From: Desulfobacterales bacterium
GTDB taxonomy: Bacteria; Desulfobacterota; DSM-4660; Desulfatiglandales; Desulfatiglandaceae
Length of the DNA stretch: 41,146 nucleotides
Reading direction: 5' to 3'
NCBI GenBank assembly: GCA_027024445.1
Contig: JALVSJ010000202.1
Span: 1-41,146, forward strand
Part shown: piece after piece, positions 32,840 to 41,143 of the stretch
How the letters are laid out: every line of letters starts with the position of its first letter
How positions within the stretch are numbered: the first letter of the stretch is position 1
Made by a program: the position numbers and the translations under genes
Notes under the pieces: generated by a model
The model's input: only the letters and a program-made list of their open reading frames with translations
What the model was told of the DNA's origin: nothing
Databases searched by the model: none

Positions 32840-34156
32840 ATGTGTCGGACTGCTTCCAACATTCACGTACCCCTTGCTGAACGGATGCGACCCTCAAGTT
32901 TTGATGAGATAGTAGGCCAGGAGCACCTGGTGGGAGAGAATACTGTGCTGCGCAGGGCTGTGGAAGCGGGAAAACCTTTTTCCGTTATTTTCTGGGGGCC
33001 ACCCGGCTCCGGGAAGACCACCCTTGCAAGGCTCATTGGAAAATATACAGGCCACCCTTTCCAGTCCTTTTCTGCTGTCACCTCAGGTCTCAAGGAACTC
33101 CGCCAAATCATAGATCAGGCGGAAAGAATACGAAATTTGAACGGACAACCTACCCTTCTCTTTGTGGACGAAATCCACCGTTTCAACAAGGCCCAGCAGG
33201 ATGCCTTCCTGCCCCATGTGGAAAGCGGGCTCATTATCCTAATAGGGGCAACGACCCAGAACCCTTCTTTTGAGGTCATTCCTCCTTTACTGTCCAGAGC
33301 GCGAGTCTTTATCCTAAAACCTCTTGATAAGGAAGCCGTCAGGAAGATCCTTCTCAGGGCCATTTCTGACAAGAACAAAGGATTGGGCGGGTCCCGGCTA
33401 GACATCGACAAAGAGGCATTGGACCTCCTTGCAAGTTTCTCGGAAGGAGACGCCCGGGTTGCCCTGAACAACCTTGAGACTGTGGTTTTTCATCATCTCG
33501 AGCTACACAAGGGAGGAGACGCCGTCCACATAGATCTTGGTGCTGTAAGCGAAGTGCTTCACCGCAAAGCGCTCACCTATGATAAGGCAGGGGAGGAGCA
33601 TTATAACTTGATCTCCGCCTTTCATAAAAGTATGCGCGGAAGTGATGCGCAGGCCTCCCTTTACTGGCTCTATAGGATGCTAGAAGCGGGGGAAGATCCC
33701 CTGTTTATCTGCCGAAGGATGATTCGCTTTGCATCGGAAGACATCGGGCTGGCTGATCCACAGGCACTCCGGGTGGCACTGGCAGCCTTTGAGGCCTGGG
33801 AGAAGGTGGGTCCTCCGGAGGCAGAATTAGCCCTTGCCGAAGCTGCTGTCTATCTTGCCACAGCACCAAAGAGCAATGCCCTCTATGTTGCAGAGAAAGC
33901 GGTCAAAGATGAGATCAGGCAAACCGGGGCACTTCCTGTCCCCATGCACATCAGAAATGCCCCCACTGGTTTAATGAAAAAACTCGGATATGGAAAGGGA
34001 TACTTATATCCCCATAACTACCCAAACGCCAGGGTTGAGCAAGAATATTTACCACACGGAATTAGACGAAGGACCTTCTATTATCCAACGGACAGGGGGT
34101 TCGAAAAAGAAGTGAAAAAACGCCTGGCGCATTCAAAAATGAAAAGAGAAGAGTAG
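32840..34156 (+). CDS. rarA: Replication-associated recombination protein A (AAA+ ATPase)
   Basis: 438 aa. The N-terminus PLAERMRPSSFDEIVGQEHL matches the MgsA/RarA start. Other motifs: Walker A GPPGSGKTT, Walker B LFVDEIHRFNK, and C-terminal MgsA_C motifs (HYNLISAFHKSMRGSD, YLYPHNY). Confidence 0.93.
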   Translation: MCRTASNIHVPLAERMRPSSFDEIVGQEHLVGENTVLRRAVEAGKPFSVIFWGPPGSGKTTLARLIGKYTGHPFQSFSAVTSGLKELRQIIDQAERIRNLNGQPTLLFVDEIHRFNKAQQDAFLPHVESGLIILIGATTQNPSFEVIPPLLSRARVFILKPLDKEAVRKILLRAISDKNKGLGGSRLDIDKEALDLLASFSEGDARVALNNLETVVFHHLELHKGGDAVHIDLGAVSEVLHRKALTYDKAGEEHYNLISAFHKSMRGSDAQASLYWLYRMLEAGEDPLFICRRMIRFASEDIGLADPQALRVALAAFEAWEKVGPPEAELALAEAAVYLATAPKSNALYVAEKAVKDEIRQTGALPVPMHIRNAPTGLMKKLGYGKGYLYPHNYPNARVEQEYLPHGIRRRTFYYPTDRGFEKEVKKRLAHSKMKREE

Positions 34157-34523: not shown

Positions 34524-36896
34524 TTATTGTGTGCTGCCCTGGAATATCCCGGTTGCACCATGACCTCGTCCGTCAGTCATTCCCCAAGCACCACCAACGT
34601 ACTCCGCATTTGGGCCATAGAAGGAGCCCGCTCCAGAATGTTGATTCGCAGTTATGGAGCCAGCAGCGGGCGTAGAAAGCCGCCAGGTGCCACCGGAGAG
34701 GCTGAATTGTCCCCCGTTAAGCGCACCACCCGCACCTATAATGGAAGCTCCATAGCCCCCGCCTGATACTGCAAGGTTAAAACCAGAAACGTTTCCGCTG
34801 GTGAAGTCCACCTGGCAATTGAAATTGCCGTTCATCAGGATACCCCCACCATTGCTTAAGGCTCTCCAGAAGGTACCATAGGCGTTTCCGCTATACCCCA
34901 CAACACCAGTCAGGCCAGAAATGACTTCGTCCCTAGTTGTCAGGCCGAACAAATAGTAAGCCCTATTGTCGACCTGAAAGTCCTGCCCGGTACTAGGGTC
35001 TGTCCAGGCCGAGGTCATTGTCCAGTATCCCCACTCCATATATGAATTGTGCCCTAGCTCTGTTGCAGTTATTGGGTATGCAGTTCCAAGTGGGCCCGAA
35101 TCGACATACCCTGAGTCCGTGACTATTCTCGTCACATACGAGGTTGTATTATCAACAAAGCCCGGATTCAATGTCATCAAGTCGCCACCAGTTGATACTG
35201 AGGTCGCACTGATACTGGAGGAGTCGAAATCCTGGCCACTTCCGCTAACGTAGACATTTGACAAAGTTAATGTGTAATTATCCGAGAGAAGCGCTGAAAA
35301 ATATCCTATGTGTCTTCCGCTCGTCGTGTTCTCGGGCACATTCTGATCATTGGTGCTGTCGCCCTGTTCACCAATTGCACCTGCAAAAGATCCATCAAGC
35401 AGGCCAAATGGGATTGCTCTTTCTCCCTTTTTCTCTGCTTTTACCCTTTTCTCTGTTTCCACCCCGGTGTCTTCTTCGAATTTCCTGAGATAGTCAGGGG
35501 TGTAGGGAACAACTTGCCCGGTTTCACAATCATACTTGTACCCTGCAGGAACCTCTTTGCCGTCTACAGCCAACAGCCCGTCTGCGCAAAAGGCCTCGGT
35601 ACAATACTGTGCCCCTCCGCCCCCCGCTGAGGCCAGCATGAAGGCCTGGGCAGCATCGGTTGACGCAACCATCGGACACCCCTCTGATGCTGTCTTCTCT
35701 TCTATGCGCCTCACATACACGCCAAATTTGGTTCCCCTGACACCCACAACCGCAGTCGGCGTCTTTACGCGAAAAGCCATCTGTTTGTACCTGAACAGGC
35801 GCAAGGCAAAAAACATGGCCTTGCCCTTCAGCATGCTGAAAAATGAGGTCTTCTTTTTCTCCTCCCTTTTGTCCTGGTACTGGTCAACTGCAAACTCTGT
35901 GTTGGCTGCCATGCTCACCAGGTCATCATCAAAAAAGTTGATGCGGCATCTGGAATTGTCCAGGGTATAGACAGCATCGTTTTGATAAATGATATCCCCG
36001 GGTCTTGCAAAATATGCCTCTCTGGTGGCCCTGTGCAGGACCACAACATGGCCCAGCATGGCCTGAATAGACCCGGCCCGTTTTTCTGTGCTCGGGACAA
36101 AATAGTCTCTGATGGTAATCCCTCTCAGGGCCTCCGGCAGGGGGCCTGCCACAGGCGGGGTTCCTCTAGTTGGTCTGGTCTGGGGCTTGGCAACCACTCT
36201 GGGTTTGGGTTTTGAAACAGGAGCGGGTTTTTTCTGTTTGAAAAGTGGTACACCCTCTTCTTTTTTCTTCCTTGGGACAACCTTGGGCCTGGGAGCTTTT
36301 TTCTCCGCTACCCTGGGGGCAGGAGGCGGCAGCAGCATTCTTACTGCTTCAGAAACATCTCCAAAAACATGGATCTCACTTCTACGGTTGAGCGCTCTCC
36401 CGGAAGTCGTCTTGTTGGAGGCTATTGGATTTACGGGTCCATATCCATTGACAATTATACGCGAGGGGTCAAGATAATATTTTTCGACTAATACACGTTT
36501 GACCTCTTGAGCACGCTTGAGGGAAAGCCTTTTATTCAACCACGCAGGGCCGGTATTGTCGGTGTATCCTCTTATTACAAGGCGGTATGAACGCCTCTCG
36601 GGAGTCTTTAGTGCGTCTGCTAATTCAAGCAGCAGCTTCTGGTACTTCTTCCCCACCGCGGCTGAATTTACCGGGTAGTGGATAGTGAGTACCTTCCCCA
36701 GGTAGACCTCTCCCTTGGCATTCTTGTGGGCCAACTCCTGGGACTTTAAAAAAGCAAGCGGGCTGAGGGGCTTGTTCCCTGCTGCCGTTACTGTATGTGC
36801 AAAACAAATGGATAGTCCCAAAATCACAGCACCAAAAAGATGAATGACCCGGGCTGCTTGTCCTCTTTGCTTGCCTTTTCTCTGACATTCCATCAT
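34524..36896 (-). CDS. Exported multidomain protein: OmpA-like peptidoglycan-binding domain, Pro/Lys-rich linker, FecR-like domain, and a C-terminal TbpB/fHbp-type beta-barrel-like domain
   Basis: 790 aa. The signal peptide (VIHLFGAVILGLSICFAHTVTA|AG) has LSIC, which is not a canonical lipobox. OmpA_C-like motifs read RGYTDNTGPAWLNKRLSLKRAQEV...NRRSEI. The linker reads PPPAPRVAEKKAPRPKVVPRKKK...KPKPRVVAKPQ. The FecR-like block reads GHVVVLHRATREAYFARPGDIIYQNDAVYT...SMAANTEF. The last ~133 aa (approx. nt 34527-34925) read VGYSGNAYGTF...NFNCQVDFTSGNVSGF...GGQFSLSG...GAGSFYGPNAEYVGGAWGM...ATGIFQGS. That fits the Y.G.A.G / DF...(I/V)SG / G..F.G / G.FYGP.A.E.GG / G.F pattern of transferrin-binding-protein-B-like barrels. 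Confidence 0.7.
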   Translation of the reverse strand: MMECQRKGKQRGQAARVIHLFGAVILGLSICFAHTVTAAGNKPLSPLAFLKSQELAHKNAKGEVYLGKVLTIHYPVNSAAVGKKYQKLLLELADALKTPERRSYRLVIRGYTDNTGPAWLNKRLSLKRAQEVKRVLVEKYYLDPSRIIVNGYGPVNPIASNKTTSGRALNRRSEIHVFGDVSEAVRMLLPPPAPRVAEKKAPRPKVVPRKKKEEGVPLFKQKKPAPVSKPKPRVVAKPQTRPTRGTPPVAGPLPEALRGITIRDYFVPSTEKRAGSIQAMLGHVVVLHRATREAYFARPGDIIYQNDAVYTLDNSRCRINFFDDDLVSMAANTEFAVDQYQDKREEKKKTSFFSMLKGKAMFFALRLFRYKQMAFRVKTPTAVVGVRGTKFGVYVRRIEEKTASEGCPMVASTDAAQAFMLASAGGGGAQYCTEAFCADGLLAVDGKEVPAGYKYDCETGQVVPYTPDYLRKFEEDTGVETEKRVKAEKKGERAIPFGLLDGSFAGAIGEQGDSTNDQNVPENTTSGRHIGYFSALLSDNYTLTLSNVYVSGSGQDFDSSSISATSVSTGGDLMTLNPGFVDNTTSYVTRIVTDSGYVDSGPLGTAYPITATELGHNSYMEWGYWTMTSAWTDPSTGQDFQVDNRAYYLFGLTTRDEVISGLTGVVGYSGNAYGTFWRALSNGGGILMNGNFNCQVDFTSGNVSGFNLAVSGGGYGASIIGAGGALNGGQFSLSGGTWRLSTPAAGSITANQHSGAGSFYGPNAEYVGGAWGMTDGRGHGATGIFQGSTQ

Positions 36897-36983
36897 TAGC
36901 CCCCTTTACTTACCTTAAGAAAACCGGGATGTCGGTTTTTCATATCTTCTCCACTTTTAGTTTCCCAAATATCCCATCATTCC

Positions 36984-36993
36984 ATTATACCAA
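36984..36993 (-). promoter_or_regulatory. Extended -10 promoter element (TGgTATAAT) for the 790-aa gene
   Basis: The minus strand reads TTGGTATAAT, a perfect TATAAT with an upstream TG. It lies about 90 nt upstream of the ATG, and the leader contains the hairpin aaaaccg-acatc-ccggtttt. An AAGGGGG RBS precedes the start. Confidence 0.45.
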
Positions 36994-37069
36994 GTATCCT
37001 CAGTAAACGGCCATGTACAAGCAGACGAGCAAATGAGAGTTTTTGAAGCTTGAAATCAGGGCATATTAA

Positions 37070-38530
37070 CTAGTACTTCACTCCCACCTGCAATCCGTAA
37101 ATGGTCTTGTCGAACTCATAAAATGGTGTGTTGGAGTCGTTATTGATATAATTGAAATAGATTGTTCCGAAACAATATTTTGAAAAATTTCTGGTCAACC
37201 CGGCATAAAAGTTGTGCCTTTCGTCCTCCCTGTCTCCAGTAAAGCCAAACAGTCTGGCGGGGGGCGGCTGCCCCTTGTAATCTCTATCACTGTATTTGTA
37301 CCGCAGGTAGCATTCTAGGTCCCAGGGAAGCCTCTTTAACAATGATATTCCCAGGTTATATCCATCATAGCTGTATCCATAATCATCAGCGTTGAGATTC
37401 TCATTCGAATAAAAGACAGAAATAATGTCCTTTCTTCCGTTAAGATAAAAATTTGACCTCAACTCCCAGATTCTGTTGATGTTATCCTGTGTCTGCCGCT
37501 CTCTCGAATCATAGTCCTCATCCACATAAGCAAATGTGGCCTTCAGCCCCAGCCATTTAAATACAAAATACTCAAAGGATGGAGCGAAGTCCCAGGTATC
37601 ATATAAGGTATCATCATCGTAGTAGGCCTTTCCATATCCAATTGGCGCCTTAAAGACCATTCTCGAACCCACCCACCATGGACCTGTGGAAACATGCCAC
37701 AGACCAAAGTCAAATTCATCATGGTCAAAATTATGGGTGAAATAGACATTGCCAGCGGCATTCCACATCATGCCATCTCGTTTCCCGAGGTCATAGACCA
37801 CGCTGCCCACGCCACTCAAGACCCCAACCCAATCATCAAGTTCCTGTTGTGTCTCACTGAGCGTGATTAAGCCTCCACCCGGGGTGCCTATGGTCTTTCG
37901 ATCCGGCCCCGCGCTGACATTGCTGTCGTGCTGTACACCAATGCCAAGGCGGGCATGCGGAAAGACCTTCTTCGTCCGCGCATCAATGGCAGCCATCATT
38001 TTTTCAATATTAGCTTTCACCTGTTTAGGGGGATTCAAGGCAAGCACGGTCTTCAGATTCTTGCGCGCCTCCTTATATTGTCCTGCCTGGAACTGGGTAG
38101 CAGCCAGATCAAGCCTTACGCGGTGAAGATCAGGATCAACTGCCAGCATCTCTTTATATTTCTTTATTGCCAGATCCAGCTTTCCTGCACCACGGGCACA
38201 ACTGGCCAGCCAGAACTTGACGTCCATTGTTTCAATCTTTGAGGCCACTGCCTCAAACAAGGGCAGCGCTCGCCCGTACTTGTGCTCATAAAACAGGGTC
38301 AGGGCCTTGGAGAGCTTATCATCAAGGGACTTAATTTCCTGTGGCGACATTTCTTGAAGCTTCTGCTTTGCCTTTTCGTCAAACGCACGGGCAGCAGGGC
38401 TCTTGGCCATGAGCCCCTTTTCCAAGTACCGCTTAGTCCCCTCTTGGGCCAGGGTATTGGACGTAATCAGCCATGAAAAGGATACCAAGAACACTGCTAG
38501 GAGCGTAAAAACGAAGCGATTGATTCTCAT
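37070..38530 (-). CDS. TPR plus outer-membrane beta-barrel protein, Slam/DUF560-like (surface lipoprotein assembly modifier; type XI secretion candidate)
   Basis: 486 aa with a signal peptide (FTLLAVFLVSFSWLITSNTLAQE). About 150 aa are TPR-like (YEHKYGRALPLFEAVAS...AIKKYKEMLAVDPDL...AGQYKEARKNLKTVLALNP). The Gly/aromatic-rich remainder alternates in a beta-strand pattern, opens with GIGVQHDSNVSAGPD and ends in an OMP-type terminal aromatic (..YGLQVGVKY*). The size and layout match Slam proteins. A generic TPR-barrel protein cannot be excluded without an HMM search. Confidence 0.55.
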   Translation of the reverse strand: MRINRFVFTLLAVFLVSFSWLITSNTLAQEGTKRYLEKGLMAKSPAARAFDEKAKQKLQEMSPQEIKSLDDKLSKALTLFYEHKYGRALPLFEAVASKIETMDVKFWLASCARGAGKLDLAIKKYKEMLAVDPDLHRVRLDLAATQFQAGQYKEARKNLKTVLALNPPKQVKANIEKMMAAIDARTKKVFPHARLGIGVQHDSNVSAGPDRKTIGTPGGGLITLSETQQELDDWVGVLSGVGSVVYDLGKRDGMMWNAAGNVYFTHNFDHDEFDFGLWHVSTGPWWVGSRMVFKAPIGYGKAYYDDDTLYDTWDFAPSFEYFVFKWLGLKATFAYVDEDYDSRERQTQDNINRIWELRSNFYLNGRKDIISVFYSNENLNADDYGYSYDGYNLGISLLKRLPWDLECYLRYKYSDRDYKGQPPPARLFGFTGDREDERHNFYAGLTRNFSKYCFGTIYFNYINNDSNTPFYEFDKTIYGLQVGVKY

Positions 38531-38621
38531 GAGGCCTCCGTTTCCCAGGATTTGATTGATTGTAGGTGAGCCATGTTTAGCTTAAGTACAGGAAAGCGAA
38601 GTCAAAACAAGACACGGTGTT

Positions 38622-38651
38622 AAAGTAGCCGATAGTTAGGTTTTATGTCAA
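38622..38651 (-). promoter_or_regulatory. Candidate sigma70 promoter for the Slam-like gene
   Basis: The minus strand reads TTGACA (complement of 38646-38651), an 18-nt spacer, then TACTTT. A GGAGG RBS lies just before the ATG at 38530. Confidence 0.35.
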
Positions 38652-38672
38652 CCTCAAAACGAGTAGATTGGT

Positions 38673-39617
38673 CTATCCAAGTCGATACCTAAAACCATTT
38701 TTGATAATCTCCTTCACTTCCTTTTTGGTAAATCTGAACTTTTCATACAAGATCCTGTACTCACTAGGCAAACTTACCTGGAAAAAGGCAGGGTCATCCG
38801 TGTTCAAGGTAACGGGCACACCGTACTCATAAAGCATCCTGATCGGATGATGGGCCAGATCAGAGACTGCCCCCAATTTCACATTGCCAGTCAGGGAAAT
38901 ATCAAGCGCTATATCCTCATTTGCCAGGTATTCTACCACCCCCCTATCCTTAATGGATGAAATCCCGTGGCCAATTCGATGGGGCCTCAGTTCCCCCAAG
39001 GTCTCCCACACAGCCTCCGGGCCCAGAAATTCTCCGGCATGGGCCACTGCCCCAAGGCCTATTTCCCTTGCCCTCTCAAAGACGGCGGCAAAGGGCCTTA
39101 TGGTTCCTGGCCTCTCCTCACCGGCAAGGTCAATCCCGACAATGCGCCTGTGGGGATACATTTCGATCCAATCAAGTGTTTTCTCTCCTGACACAGGCCC
39201 AAGATTCCTGGGTATTGTGCATATAATCCTTGCGTCAGGGCCATCGTGGGCCTGTAACTCATCAAACGCCCTCCCAACGGCCTCCATGAGGTCCTTAAAA
39301 TCTATGCCCCTTCGCACATGCACATAAGGCATTATTGAGACCTCGCAGTAGACGATATTTTCCCGCTTCAATCTCTCACCAAAAGACCTGGCAATCTCGT
39401 AGAAGTCTTCCGGGGTGTCAAAGTATGGTCCAAGGGCAGGGAAAAGGGCATCGAATTCTTTGAAGTTGGAGAAGCGGTATGGACTTTCCTCAAAGGCAGA
39501 CAACCCCTTTTTTGCAGCCAGATTGTTCAAGGTCTCAACAGATATGCTCCCCTCCAGATGCACATGAAGTTCGGCCTTCGCAATGGTGGCAAGCTCTGTT
39601 ATTCCTTCTTGATCCAT
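38673..39617 (-). CDS. add: Adenosine deaminase family protein
   Basis: 314 aa. The metal-binding signature is AELHVHLEGS, followed by GIDLAGEE, HAGE and TLNTDDP. Confidence 0.85.
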   Translation of the reverse strand: MDQEGITELATIAKAELHVHLEGSISVETLNNLAAKKGLSAFEESPYRFSNFKEFDALFPALGPYFDTPEDFYEIARSFGERLKRENIVYCEVSIMPYVHVRRGIDFKDLMEAVGRAFDELQAHDGPDARIICTIPRNLGPVSGEKTLDWIEMYPHRRIVGIDLAGEERPGTIRPFAAVFERAREIGLGAVAHAGEFLGPEAVWETLGELRPHRIGHGISSIKDRGVVEYLANEDIALDISLTGNVKLGAVSDLAHHPIRMLYEYGVPVTLNTDDPAFFQVSLPSEYRILYEKFRFTKKEVKEIIKNGFRYRLG

Positions 39618-40762: not shown

Positions 40763-41143
40763 ATGAAACTCACCATCTTACTATCAGATATATATCGTGC
40801 AACACTGGCTGAGGACTGCGGAAACGAAGGCTATATAGGTATTGCTCCTGACGGCTCGTCTTACCACGTGGTCGTGCCGGTAGATCGCCAGTTGGCTAGA
40901 GGCCTAAGCCCCATGAGTCCGCCTTCGGATGGGACCCCATTTGCAGGATATAAAGGATGGCACTATTTCTGCTGCCTGACCCATCATAATGACAAGCAAC
41001 ACCCTGACAAGGCAAAACAATATCGCCTTGAGAGGGCAAAAGAAAATGCCTGGCTCATCGAAAGATGGGCAAAGGGTCTCAAATTGGACTTGGAGATCCT
41101 TGACGATCTAACTTCCTCTCCAGATGATAACCTGTCCAAATAG
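40763..41143 (+). CDS. Hypothetical protein (126 aa)
   Basis: A complete ORF that ends 3 nt before the window edge. The composition is non-repetitive (..GWHYFCCLTHHNDKQHPDKAKQYRLERAKENAWLIERWAKG..). No obvious Shine-Dalgarno is present and no family was recognised. It starts 82 nt after the structured element. Confidence 0.4.
   Translation: MKLTILLSDIYRATLAEDCGNEGYIGIAPDGSSYHVVVPVDRQLARGLSPMSPPSDGTPFAGYKGWHYFCCLTHHNDKQHPDKAKQYRLERAKENAWLIERWAKGLKLDLEILDDLTSSPDDNLSK

Follow-up and report, generated by a model that had tools for sequence, protein, structure and literature searches.

Slam proteins are outer-membrane proteins (OMPs) of the DUF560 family, and in the closest described case Slam1 acts as an autonomous translocon that recognizes a C-terminal specificity motif of its unfolded cargo, which then folds outside (Huynh et al., 2022; PMC9090332). 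A later paper assigns all experimentally verified cargo of the type 11 secretion system (T11SS) to the animal-associated cluster 1 of this family (Grossman et al., 2025; PMC12282271), and none of the ten cargo architectures described there has a FecR or OmpA domain; in fact, neither "FecR" nor "OmpA" appears in its main text. In the sequence similarity network (SSN) of DUF560 proteins, cluster 7 comprises 30 nodes, about 97% of them environmental, and its entries in Table S1 include Desulfobacterales and Syntrophobacterales (Grossman et al., 2021; PMC8406197), while Slam homologs have been listed in Desulfobacter, Syntrophus, and Geobacter, with the cultured Desulfobacter curvatus, Desulfospira joergensenii, and Syntrophus aciditrophicus among them (Hooda et al., 2017; PMC5449769). 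The neighborhood survey of Hooda et al. scored lipoproteins only, the cargo analysis in the Grossman work covered only clusters 1 and 3, and "FecR" is absent from the 2021 main text and, as far as searched, from the supplements to both of these studies (2017 and 2021). For cluster 7, which holds the delta-proteobacterial DUF560 proteins, we found no cargo analysis or experiment in the literature, and a literature search combining the FecR domain, Desulfobacter, and the outer membrane returned no papers. Here, we analyzed a 41,146-nt stretch of DNA (the window; contig JALVSJ010000202.1 of assembly GCA_027024445.1) from a Desulfobacterales bacterium (GTDB Desulfatiglandaceae), in which a sequence-only reading had placed a Slam-like gene next to a gene for an unusual cargo. 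Both open reading frames (ORFs) are indeed present as neighbors on the minus strand, the first encoding a 486-aa protein (37070..38530) and the second a 790-aa protein (34524..36896). While the kind of transporter and the presence of DUF560 proteins in this lineage are already known, the cargo class, its near-universal pairing with the transporter, the peptidoglycan-binding accessory, and the fusion of that accessory to the cargo all appear to be undescribed.

By sequence criteria, the 486-aa protein is a divergent member of the DUF560/Slam family. It begins with a signal peptide (residues ~1-28; 38447..38530) that, as judged from the translation, is of the signal-peptidase-I type, with cleavage between SNTLA and QEG and no Cys. 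There follows a periplasmic tetratricopeptide repeat (TPR) domain (residues 45-188; 37967..38398), whose helices are seen in a single-sequence AlphaFold model with block-mean predicted local distance difference test (pLDDT) values of 61-91, and then a DUF560/SlipAM β-barrel region (residues 196-486; 37073..37945). Both Pfam domains score above their gathering cut-offs, with TPR_Slam (PF24575) at 42.2 bits against 35.2 for residues 74-158, and SlipAM/DUF560 (PF04575) at 32.6 bits against 22 for residues 196-476 on profile positions 6-278 of 288. The translation also bears out that the barrel opens with "GIGVQHDSNVSAGPD" at about residue 197 and that the C-terminus ("...VGVKY") is aromatic. Moreover, the DUF560 match is significant and no rival barrel class scores better, with BBP2_2 at an E-value of 0.17 and DUF2860 in 5 of 53 family members. 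Among these 53 aligned relatives, TPR_Slam is found in all but one (52/53) and SlipAM at E < 0.01 in 31 (best 1.2e-12), and three relatives scanned singly, which are 31-39% identical to the window protein, cover DUF560 profile positions 1-286 or 1-288 of 288 with 33-43 bits. Given the weakness of these DUF560 matches, the Slam-like proteins here form a divergent clade. One of the three, with 33% identity over 89% of the length, bears the NCBI name "surface lipoprotein assembly modifier". Within the SSN, the window OMP most likely belongs in or next to cluster 7. Its 97 homologs come, wherever a taxon is annotated, from delta-proteobacterial or Desulfobacterota-type organisms, save for one metagenome-assembled genome labeled Anaerolineae. 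The 60 listed PDB matches of the 486-aa protein are all TPR proteins, with no Slam-family entry among them.

The 790-aa protein consists of a signal peptide, an OmpA-like domain, a linker, a FecR-like domain, a second linker, and a C-terminal lobe. Its AlphaFold model, calculated with a 56-sequence alignment, has a mean pLDDT of 80.4, the low-confidence stretches being the signal peptide, the first linker (residues 206-238), residues 400-427, and residues 482-525. We found in the translation each of the motifs that the sequence-only reading had listed ("GLSICFAHTVTA" followed by AG, "YSGNAYG", "VDFTSGNVSG", "GSFYGPNAEYVGGAW", and "GIFQG"), and the lobe in which it had recognized a TbpB-type barrel is predicted to fold accordingly, with pLDDT > 90 for residues 529-790 and with matches to the TbpB C-lobe and NHBA by both Foldseek and the family profile. 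This lobe can be divided into a handle ("pedestal") domain (residues 529-660; 34917..35312) and a TbpB/NHBA-type β-barrel (residues 661-790; 34527..34916). A Foldseek search of the cargo model against the PDB gave the TbpB C-lobe (E-value 2.6e-9) and NHBA (template-modeling score 0.66-0.70), as well as LbpB and the HphA hemophilins; all of these except NHBA are established as cargo of Slam/T11SS. Likewise, the profile of the cargo family reached the NHBA/GNA2132 C-domain (E-value 1.7e-7) and TbpB C-lobes (E-value 4e-7) in the PDB, its positions 408-597 aligning to residues 43-235 of a TbpB C-lobe (PDB ID: 5kkx) and so spanning handle and barrel together. At the residue level, the alignment has a shared signature (Y.G..G / G.F..V(N/D)F / G.(F/L)YGP.AEE.GG / GvF.GK+) that extends to the final residues. 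DSSP assigned 8-10 strand elements to residues 665-789 of the model, and conservation in the lobe lies chiefly at structural Gly and aromatic positions. Among 56 cargo relatives, TbpB_B_D is matched in 23 (best 1.6e-6) and FHBP_C in eight. In the window protein, the lobe occupies the extreme C-terminus (the match ends at residue 785-789 of 790), and the same holds for nearly all of the 150 matches listed from the 230 clusters with this lobe type that an exhaustive scan over 1.84 billion representatives returned; a word-indexed homology search with the lobe by itself gave four proteins. The C-terminal barrel is presumed to be the module that the Slam-like protein recognizes.

The pairing of these two genes is more than coincidence. 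When GTDB species genomes were scanned with the Slam-like alignment, we obtained 80 loci, from Desulfobacterales, Desulfatiglandales, Syntrophales, Syntrophobacteria, one Geobacteraceae, and an Olavius symbiont; all are delta-proteobacterial or Desulfobacterota-type genomes, and the Desulfobacterota-type background that had been read from the window is thereby borne out. Among the 72 loci with at least 400 bp after the Slam-like gene, 68 have a gene for a FecR-like domain plus lobe just downstream on the same strand, which establishes the co-conservation anticipated for the pair. The adjacency holds at 33-74% identity, and the 68 loci fall into 53 without an OmpA-like gene, 11 with a separate one (~180 aa) located between the Slam-like and cargo genes, and four in which it is fused to the cargo. 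A cargo-centered count on metagenome contigs agrees, in that a Slam-like gene stands directly upstream of 31 of 36 decidable full-length cargo genes. We thus consider it very probable that the two proteins are a cognate OMP-cargo pair, and the operon type is fixed in the chromosome across Desulfobacterota. As to the claim that the cargo is unusual, the OmpA fusion is special to the window, but FecR-plus-lobe cargo is the rule within its own lineage. Seven loci (L020, L031, L038, L043, L065, L078, and L115) have two FecR-plus-lobe genes beside one Slam-like gene, in tandem or flanking it, and one translocon may serve several cargo paralogs. Expressed as mean pairwise identity for each region, conservation is 56% in the FecR-like region, 36% in the barrel, 25% in the handle, and 18% in the inter-domain linker of the cargo, and 56% and 44%, respectively, in the TPR domain and barrel of the Slam-like protein. 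The FecR-like region is accordingly the most conserved part of the cargo and the handle the most variable folded part, and such a combination of conserved FecR-like and TPR domains with varying handle, barrel, and lobe number is what one would anticipate if a conserved interface in the periplasm were joined to surface parts that diversify.

At its N-terminus, the cargo has by eye an n-region, a hydrophobic core, and a cleavage site between VTA and A, and hence a Sec-type signal peptide (residues 1-38; 36783..36896). The call that the protein is no lipoprotein proved correct, and it extends to the family as a whole. The "LSIC" string of the window protein is part of the hydrophobic core, before the VTA site, and its position -1 is occupied by Ile. 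Among 81 N-termini of the family, a lipobox-like string of any kind is present in only nine, and by eye nearly all end in an AxA-type site. Since a proper lipobox is lacking, the cargo is not a Slam-dependent surface lipoprotein, and a soluble T11SS cargo fits better. Next in the sequence is an OmpA-like domain with a conserved N-terminal helix (residues 40-193; 36318..36779), which matches PF00691 with 69.5 bits (residues 76-171) and, by Foldseek against the PDB, AbOmpA in complex with a peptidoglycan fragment (PDB ID: 3td5; template-modeling score 0.82, 38% identity) as well as OprF and Pal. The diaminopimelate/peptidoglycan-binding motif (GYTD...NKRLSLKRA...NRRSE), including its conserved Asp and Arg, is intact, and on this basis the domain is predicted to bind peptidoglycan. 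It is followed by a Pro/Lys-rich disordered linker (residues ~194-243; 36168..36317), with pLDDT < 50 for residues 206-238 and with 17 Pro, 12 Lys, and 6 Arg in a 64-residue segment (189-252). This spacer had been called TonB-like, and while the Pro/Lys composition is as described, no TonB domain is found in the Pfam or NCBIfam results; the cargo as a TonB homolog was thus rejected, the likeness being one of linker composition.

The mature-N-terminus motif (RGTPPVAGPLPEAL) and the FecR-like β domain (residues 244-400; 35697..36167) come after this linker, and PF04773 is matched with 43.8 bits over residues 308-394. Here, Asp301, Asp307, Asp325, and Arg387 are invariant, and His288, Cys317, Lys349, Lys357, Lys359, Arg366, and Lys390 are nearly so. 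We also considered the cargo as a FecR-type anti-sigma factor. Its likeness to the FecR/PupR regulators is the PF04773 β domain alone, and, unlike them, the cargo has no cytoplasmic anti-sigma domain or membrane-spanning helix, nor are the partner genes for an extracytoplasmic function (ECF) sigma factor or a TonB-dependent transducer found in the window neighborhood or at those loci of relatives whose neighbors were examined; moreover, the family profile has no match to solved FecR/PupR structures in the PDB, and this candidate was rejected. A small β subdomain with a helix (residues 428-478; 35463..35615), to which no family could be assigned, follows the FecR-like domain, with strands in 430-464, a helix in 467-477, and block-mean pLDDT of 85-91 over 431-480. 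The second linker (residues 479-528; 35313..35462), which precedes the lobe, is mostly of low confidence (pLDDT < 50 for residues 482-525) with one predicted helix, and low-complexity sequence is found at the same place in all four of the relatives inspected.

How the OmpA-like domain came to be part of the cargo can be read from sister lineages, in which it is a separate ORF of 140-196 aa with its own signal peptide and no lipobox. All but one of the separate proteins aligned keep the peptidoglycan-binding motif, and at 15 of the 23 listed loci the stop codon of their gene and the start of the cargo gene share 4 nt. In unfused relatives, the mature cargo opens with the motif RG..VP...LP(E/D), and in the window protein this cargo mature-N-terminus motif is internal, right behind the Pro/Lys linker, which takes the place of the stop codon, start codon, and cargo signal peptide. 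From the split operons and the internal motif, we conclude that the window gene is a fusion of two translationally coupled genes in which the second signal peptide was lost. Such fused forms are confined to the closest clade of the window, with 52-74% identity in the Slam-like protein. By the "Rosetta stone" argument, this fusion hints at a physical interaction between the OmpA-like protein and the cargo. Metagenome matches of low identity that begin near residue 25 were also considered as independent OmpA fusions and rejected as three-gene operons joined by tblastn.

When compared with the Neisseria Slam1 and Slam2 systems and their cargo TbpB, LbpB, fHbp, and HpuA (SSN cluster 1A), the window pair shares the signal peptide, TPR, and DUF560 barrel in a protein of ~480-490 aa, the adjacent cargo gene, and a terminal handle-plus-barrel lobe with the motifs G.FYGP.AEE.GG ... 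GvF.GK. In contrast, the window cargo is a non-lipoprotein with FecR-like and OmpA-like N-terminal modules, no TonB-dependent receptor or iron-uptake genes are nearby, and the hosts are environmental delta-proteobacterial or Desulfobacterota-type organisms, whose orders are free-living anaerobes. A resemblance is also seen to hemophilin-type cargo (Hpl, HrpC/HrpB, and HphA), which is likewise Sec-dependent and non-lipidated and has a C-terminal barrel and a dedicated adjacent DUF560 protein. However, hemophilins are heme binders of ~220-270 aa released into the medium, whereas members of the window cargo family measure 570-1970 aa and have a conserved FecR-like domain, one to six lobes, and a peptidoglycan-binding partner or domain; moreover, "FecR" at hemophilin loci refers to separate neighboring regulator genes, not to a cargo domain. 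Tandem handle-barrel pairs with Pro-rich linkers, as occur in three multi-lobe relatives (P0008, L081, and L023), are also known from Sphingomonas and Psychrobacter multi-TbpBBD proteins, which are predicted T11SS cargo (Grossman et al., 2025; PMC12282271), but those have Pro-Thr repeat N-termini, are mostly lipoproteins with cluster 1 OMPs, and lack a FecR or OmpA module. Should the topology discussed below be right, there would be a functional analogy with the inverse autotransporters of the intimin/invasin family. These combine a periplasmic peptidoglycan-binding module, a chain passing through a barrel, and repeated C-terminal surface domains. There is no homology, as no intimin or LysM match is among the Pfam results, and the barrel here is a separate protein.

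With about even odds in our judgment, the two proteins are a dedicated type 11 secretion pair in which the lobe is exported and the N-terminus of the cargo is held on peptidoglycan. Both proteins would reach the periplasm via Sec with signal-peptidase-I signal peptides, and the 486-aa protein would insert into the outer membrane as a TPR domain plus DUF560 barrel. The OmpA-like domain, as the first part of the cargo to exit Sec, would fold in the periplasm and bind peptidoglycan, while the Slam-like protein would recognize the C-terminal TbpB/NHBA-type handle-plus-barrel lobe and move it to the cell surface, with export proceeding C-terminus-first as an unfolded chain, after the Slam1/TbpB model. 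Because the folded or peptidoglycan-bound OmpA-like domain would be unable to follow through the barrel, translocation would not be completed, and the mature cargo would be a tether with peptidoglycan at one end and the surface lobe at the other. The disordered linker would then sit in or beside the Slam barrel, and the FecR-like domain would remain in the periplasm, where it may contact the TPR domain of the Slam-like protein; a periplasmic location for it is probable, since it is as conserved as that periplasmic TPR domain. Taken separately, exposure of the lobe on the surface is likely from its homology, and retention of the N-terminus on peptidoglycan, and with it an envelope-spanning topology, has somewhat less than an even chance, although the split-gene evidence and the intact peptidoglycan-binding motif strengthen it. 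Surface binding or adhesion coupled to the cell wall may be the biological role. We also entertain a stricter form, possible but on the doubtful side, in which the Slam-like barrel would be a stoichiometric partner and not a catalytic exporter, with translocation beginning at the C-terminal lobe and stalling because the OmpA-like protein, whether fused or, as in sister lineages, separately encoded, holds the N-terminal end on peptidoglycan. The linker would be left threaded through the DUF560 barrel, and the whole would be an inverse-autotransporter-like two-partner tether coupling the cell wall to one to six variable surface lobes.

Several observations weigh against this tethered-pair model. 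Export of the lobe is argued from homology, and the window lobe itself is below the TbpB_B_D (PF01298) cut-off (17.1 against 26 bits; E-value 0.0082), though the sub-threshold match covers 5-122 of 126 profile positions (residues 664-785); likewise, a phmmer search with the lobe alone against the PDB gave no match, and only the family profile reaches TbpB and NHBA. Structural confirmation of a 14-strand barrel in the Slam-like protein is lacking, as the single-sequence AlphaFold model has pLDDT < 50 over residues 185-486, and a crude amphipathic-periodicity count on the Slam-like alignment gave 15 overlapping segments, which cannot be interpreted. Some full-length cargo paralogs are located away from any Slam gene. 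For a polypeptide left permanently in a Slam barrel, we found no precedent in the T11SS literature consulted. All characterized T11SS cargo is fully translocated, with soluble non-lipidated cargo among it (PMC8406197, PMC12282271). This last point would suit complete secretion of the 790-aa protein as for hemophilin or HrpC, either released or kept on the surface, with the OmpA-like domain acting outside on a glycan or muropeptide or being clipped off at the Pro/Lys linker. The multi-lobe forms with their resemblance to the published surface proteins of Sphingomonas and Psychrobacter would suit it as well, as would the weak NCBIfam match of the FecR-like domain to Lsa33, a family named after a Leptospira surface adhesin, from which that domain could be external. 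Moreover, with 53 of the 68 paired loci, and thus most relatives, lacking an operon gene of the OmpA-like type, the system does not in general require anchoring. Still, we find complete secretion unlikely, as the OmpA-like domain keeps its diaminopimelate-binding motif under selection in both fused and split forms and the known ligand is periplasmic. In addition, the split-operon OmpA-like protein, though it has neither a lobe nor a recognizable Slam signal, is translationally coupled to the cargo, which suggests a periplasmic partner, and a folded domain of ~15 kDa would hardly be expected to pass a DUF560 barrel.

The opposite extreme is that nothing is exported, and that the Slam-like barrel serves as the docking site of a periplasmic scaffold, a staple between outer membrane and wall like Pal, OmpA, and Lpp, with the OmpA-like domain on peptidoglycan and the lobe or FecR-like domain binding the TPR domain or plugging the barrel. 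OmpA, FecR, and TPR are all typically periplasmic modules, the conserved housekeeping position by rarA (with dnaE near in relatives) fits a structural envelope function, and the tight operon coupling suggests a stoichiometric complex. Yet no role is known for the TbpB-type lobe other than those of a surface-exported module and of the Slam targeting signal, up to six tandem lobes with Pro-rich linkers fit poorly in the periplasm, and the lobes are the fast-evolving part, as is typical of exposed surfaces; we accordingly hold the scaffold to be rather improbable. Signaling across the envelope, by analogy with FecA-FecR, is more improbable than that by some way: a surface lobe would sense a ligand and the FecR-like domain relay it, for which one may cite that no other part of the cargo is conserved as strongly as this domain, that many of its charged residues are invariant, and that some relatives have a hybrid histidine kinase/response-regulator gene at a distance of two or three genes. 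That kinase gene, however, is on the opposite strand and is not in the window neighborhood, and the anti-sigma domain, transmembrane segment, partner genes, and structural match to FecR/PupR that such a role calls for are all wanting, as noted above. Finally, close relatives have kept the flanking synteny too, with rarA present throughout and dnaE in the relatives, and some of the adjacency, as between two unrelated neighbors, could simply have been inherited. This would be scarcely credible, as the 68 of 72 genomes with the adjacency span four groups (Desulfobacterales, Desulfatiglandales, Syntrophales, and Syntrophobacteria), the surrounding genes differ in the flanks examined, and the partner always has the Slam-cargo fold, even where its N-terminal domain has been swapped.

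In terms of significance, the locus provides a confident and testable cargo for a Desulfobacterota clade whose partner is conserved across several orders, and with it a new, non-lipidated cargo class that joins a FecR-like domain to one to six TbpB-type lobes, accompanied in one order by a peptidoglycan-binding partner that is fused to it in the window. A Slam substrate with an N-terminal end made for retention in the periplasm raises the directly testable question of how translocation terminates and whether the barrel can stay occupied, and makes the locus a natural construct for probing the C-to-N directionality of Slam export. If true, the tether would be a new means by which anaerobes of environmental importance connect their wall and outer membrane to the cell surface; if translocation does stall, type 11 secretion would moreover gain a new end-state, and sulfate reducers and syntrophs would have an envelope structure that is phylum-wide. 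T11SS specialists would be surprised by a cargo that is wall-anchored, not lipidated, and FecR-bearing and that is conserved across a phylum.

With regard to the genomic setting, the two genes are separated by a 173-bp spacer (36897..37069), which is ~110 bp longer than in the closest relatives, where spacers measure 45-67 bp. The suggestion that each gene has a promoter-like element of its own did not hold up, as a consensus scan found 0 minus-strand promoters in either upstream region and a total (7) that shows no excess over shuffled sequences (4.7 ± 2.4). By eye, the only promoter-like sequence in the spacer is an extended -10 element (TGgTATAAT), in a stretch that is missing in the closest relatives. 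No minus-strand terminator was found between the genes by a terminator scan, and co-transcription of the pair is for this reason at least as likely. An Rfam scan of the region found no family in the spacer. A hairpin with a 9-bp stem (36919-36940; AAAAACCGA-catc-CCGGTTTTC in the coding orientation) is situated 20-40 nt before the start codon of the cargo gene, in that portion of the spacer which is specific to the window. It lacks a T-tract, matches no Rfam family, and may act in translation or stability or be of no significance. On the plus strand, opposite to the Slam-like gene, a sub-threshold Rfam match to "drum RNA" (38615-38703; 29.1 bits against a gathering score of 43, E-value 0.013) extends across the gap between the Slam-like and adenosine deaminase genes and is probably due to chance. 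The flanking genes are of the housekeeping type and comprise rarA/mgsA, the adenosine deaminase gene, a NifU-like gene, an NCS1 permease gene, and an amidohydrolase gene, and the window neighborhood has no TonB-dependent receptor, iron-uptake genes, or sigma/anti-sigma pair. At the window edge, a 126-aa ORF (40763-41143, plus strand) has no Pfam match at E ≤ 1e-5. The rarA/mgsA gene (32840-34156, plus strand) is convergent with the pair and just downstream of it, likewise in the relatives examined (L001-L004). This position is kept across relatives with 35-66% cargo identity, in which dnaE is also nearby, and from this conserved chromosomal position we conclude that the pair is vertically inherited and not carried on a mobile island.

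Cargo relatives vary greatly in size. The largest is a 1959-aa protein (L081:7321-13200) with a FecR-like domain and six tandem handle-barrel lobes, while another has at least five lobes and runs off its contig (L023:4003-9354). A third, with three lobes in an 1183-aa ORF (L058:7447-10998), is apparently the same protein as P0008, in which the lobes are joined by Pro-rich linkers. These giant multi-lobe forms look like surface fibers or adhesins. In one of two FecR-less variants (L035:7384-9516), a TPR plus CsgG-like (PF03783) region replaces the FecR-like domain before the same lobe, and this is the only N-terminal replacement identified in variant cargo, again with periplasm-type modules. 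At L150:7418-8761, the most distant Slam-like relative is followed by a 447-aa TPR plus CsgG-like protein and then a 940-aa Invasin_D3/PD40 protein. Elusimicrobia fusions of CsgG and DUF560 are among the SSN cluster 11 entries of Table S1 (PMC8406197). CsgG-like domains thus recur around DUF560 proteins, and this points to a broader, as yet unexplored connection of DUF560 barrels with periplasmic modules of the CsgG type.

Two FecR-plus-lobe paralogs without an adjacent Slam-like gene, P0061 (L005:6001-8358) and P0047 (L006:6001-8665), share 32-41% identity with the window cargo in the regions that align. Each gene immediately precedes, in the same orientation, a small cytochrome c3 gene and the rnfCDGEAB operon, in two different genomes with differing upstream neighbors. 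This context could be a link to redox or extracellular electron transfer, or just inherited synteny; at other cargo paralogs without a Slam-like gene, no Rnf/cytochrome context was evident from a heme-motif count and the ORF N-termini alone. In two metagenome contigs, the cargo appears to be split into a 326-aa FecR ORF and a ~199-aa lobe ORF ~150 bp apart (L102:5471-7201 and L104:541-2271), perhaps through a frameshift within the low-complexity linker, or perhaps because the two parts are truly separate. FecR-only ORFs of ~310-340 aa that are related to the FecR-like domain of the cargo, with neither a lobe nor a nearby Slam-like gene, were observed at five loci (L125, L126, L138, L139, and L140), and short FecR-only ORFs stand right behind the Slam-like gene at four others (L017, L019, L066, and L068); these may be truncations or a real lobe-less form.

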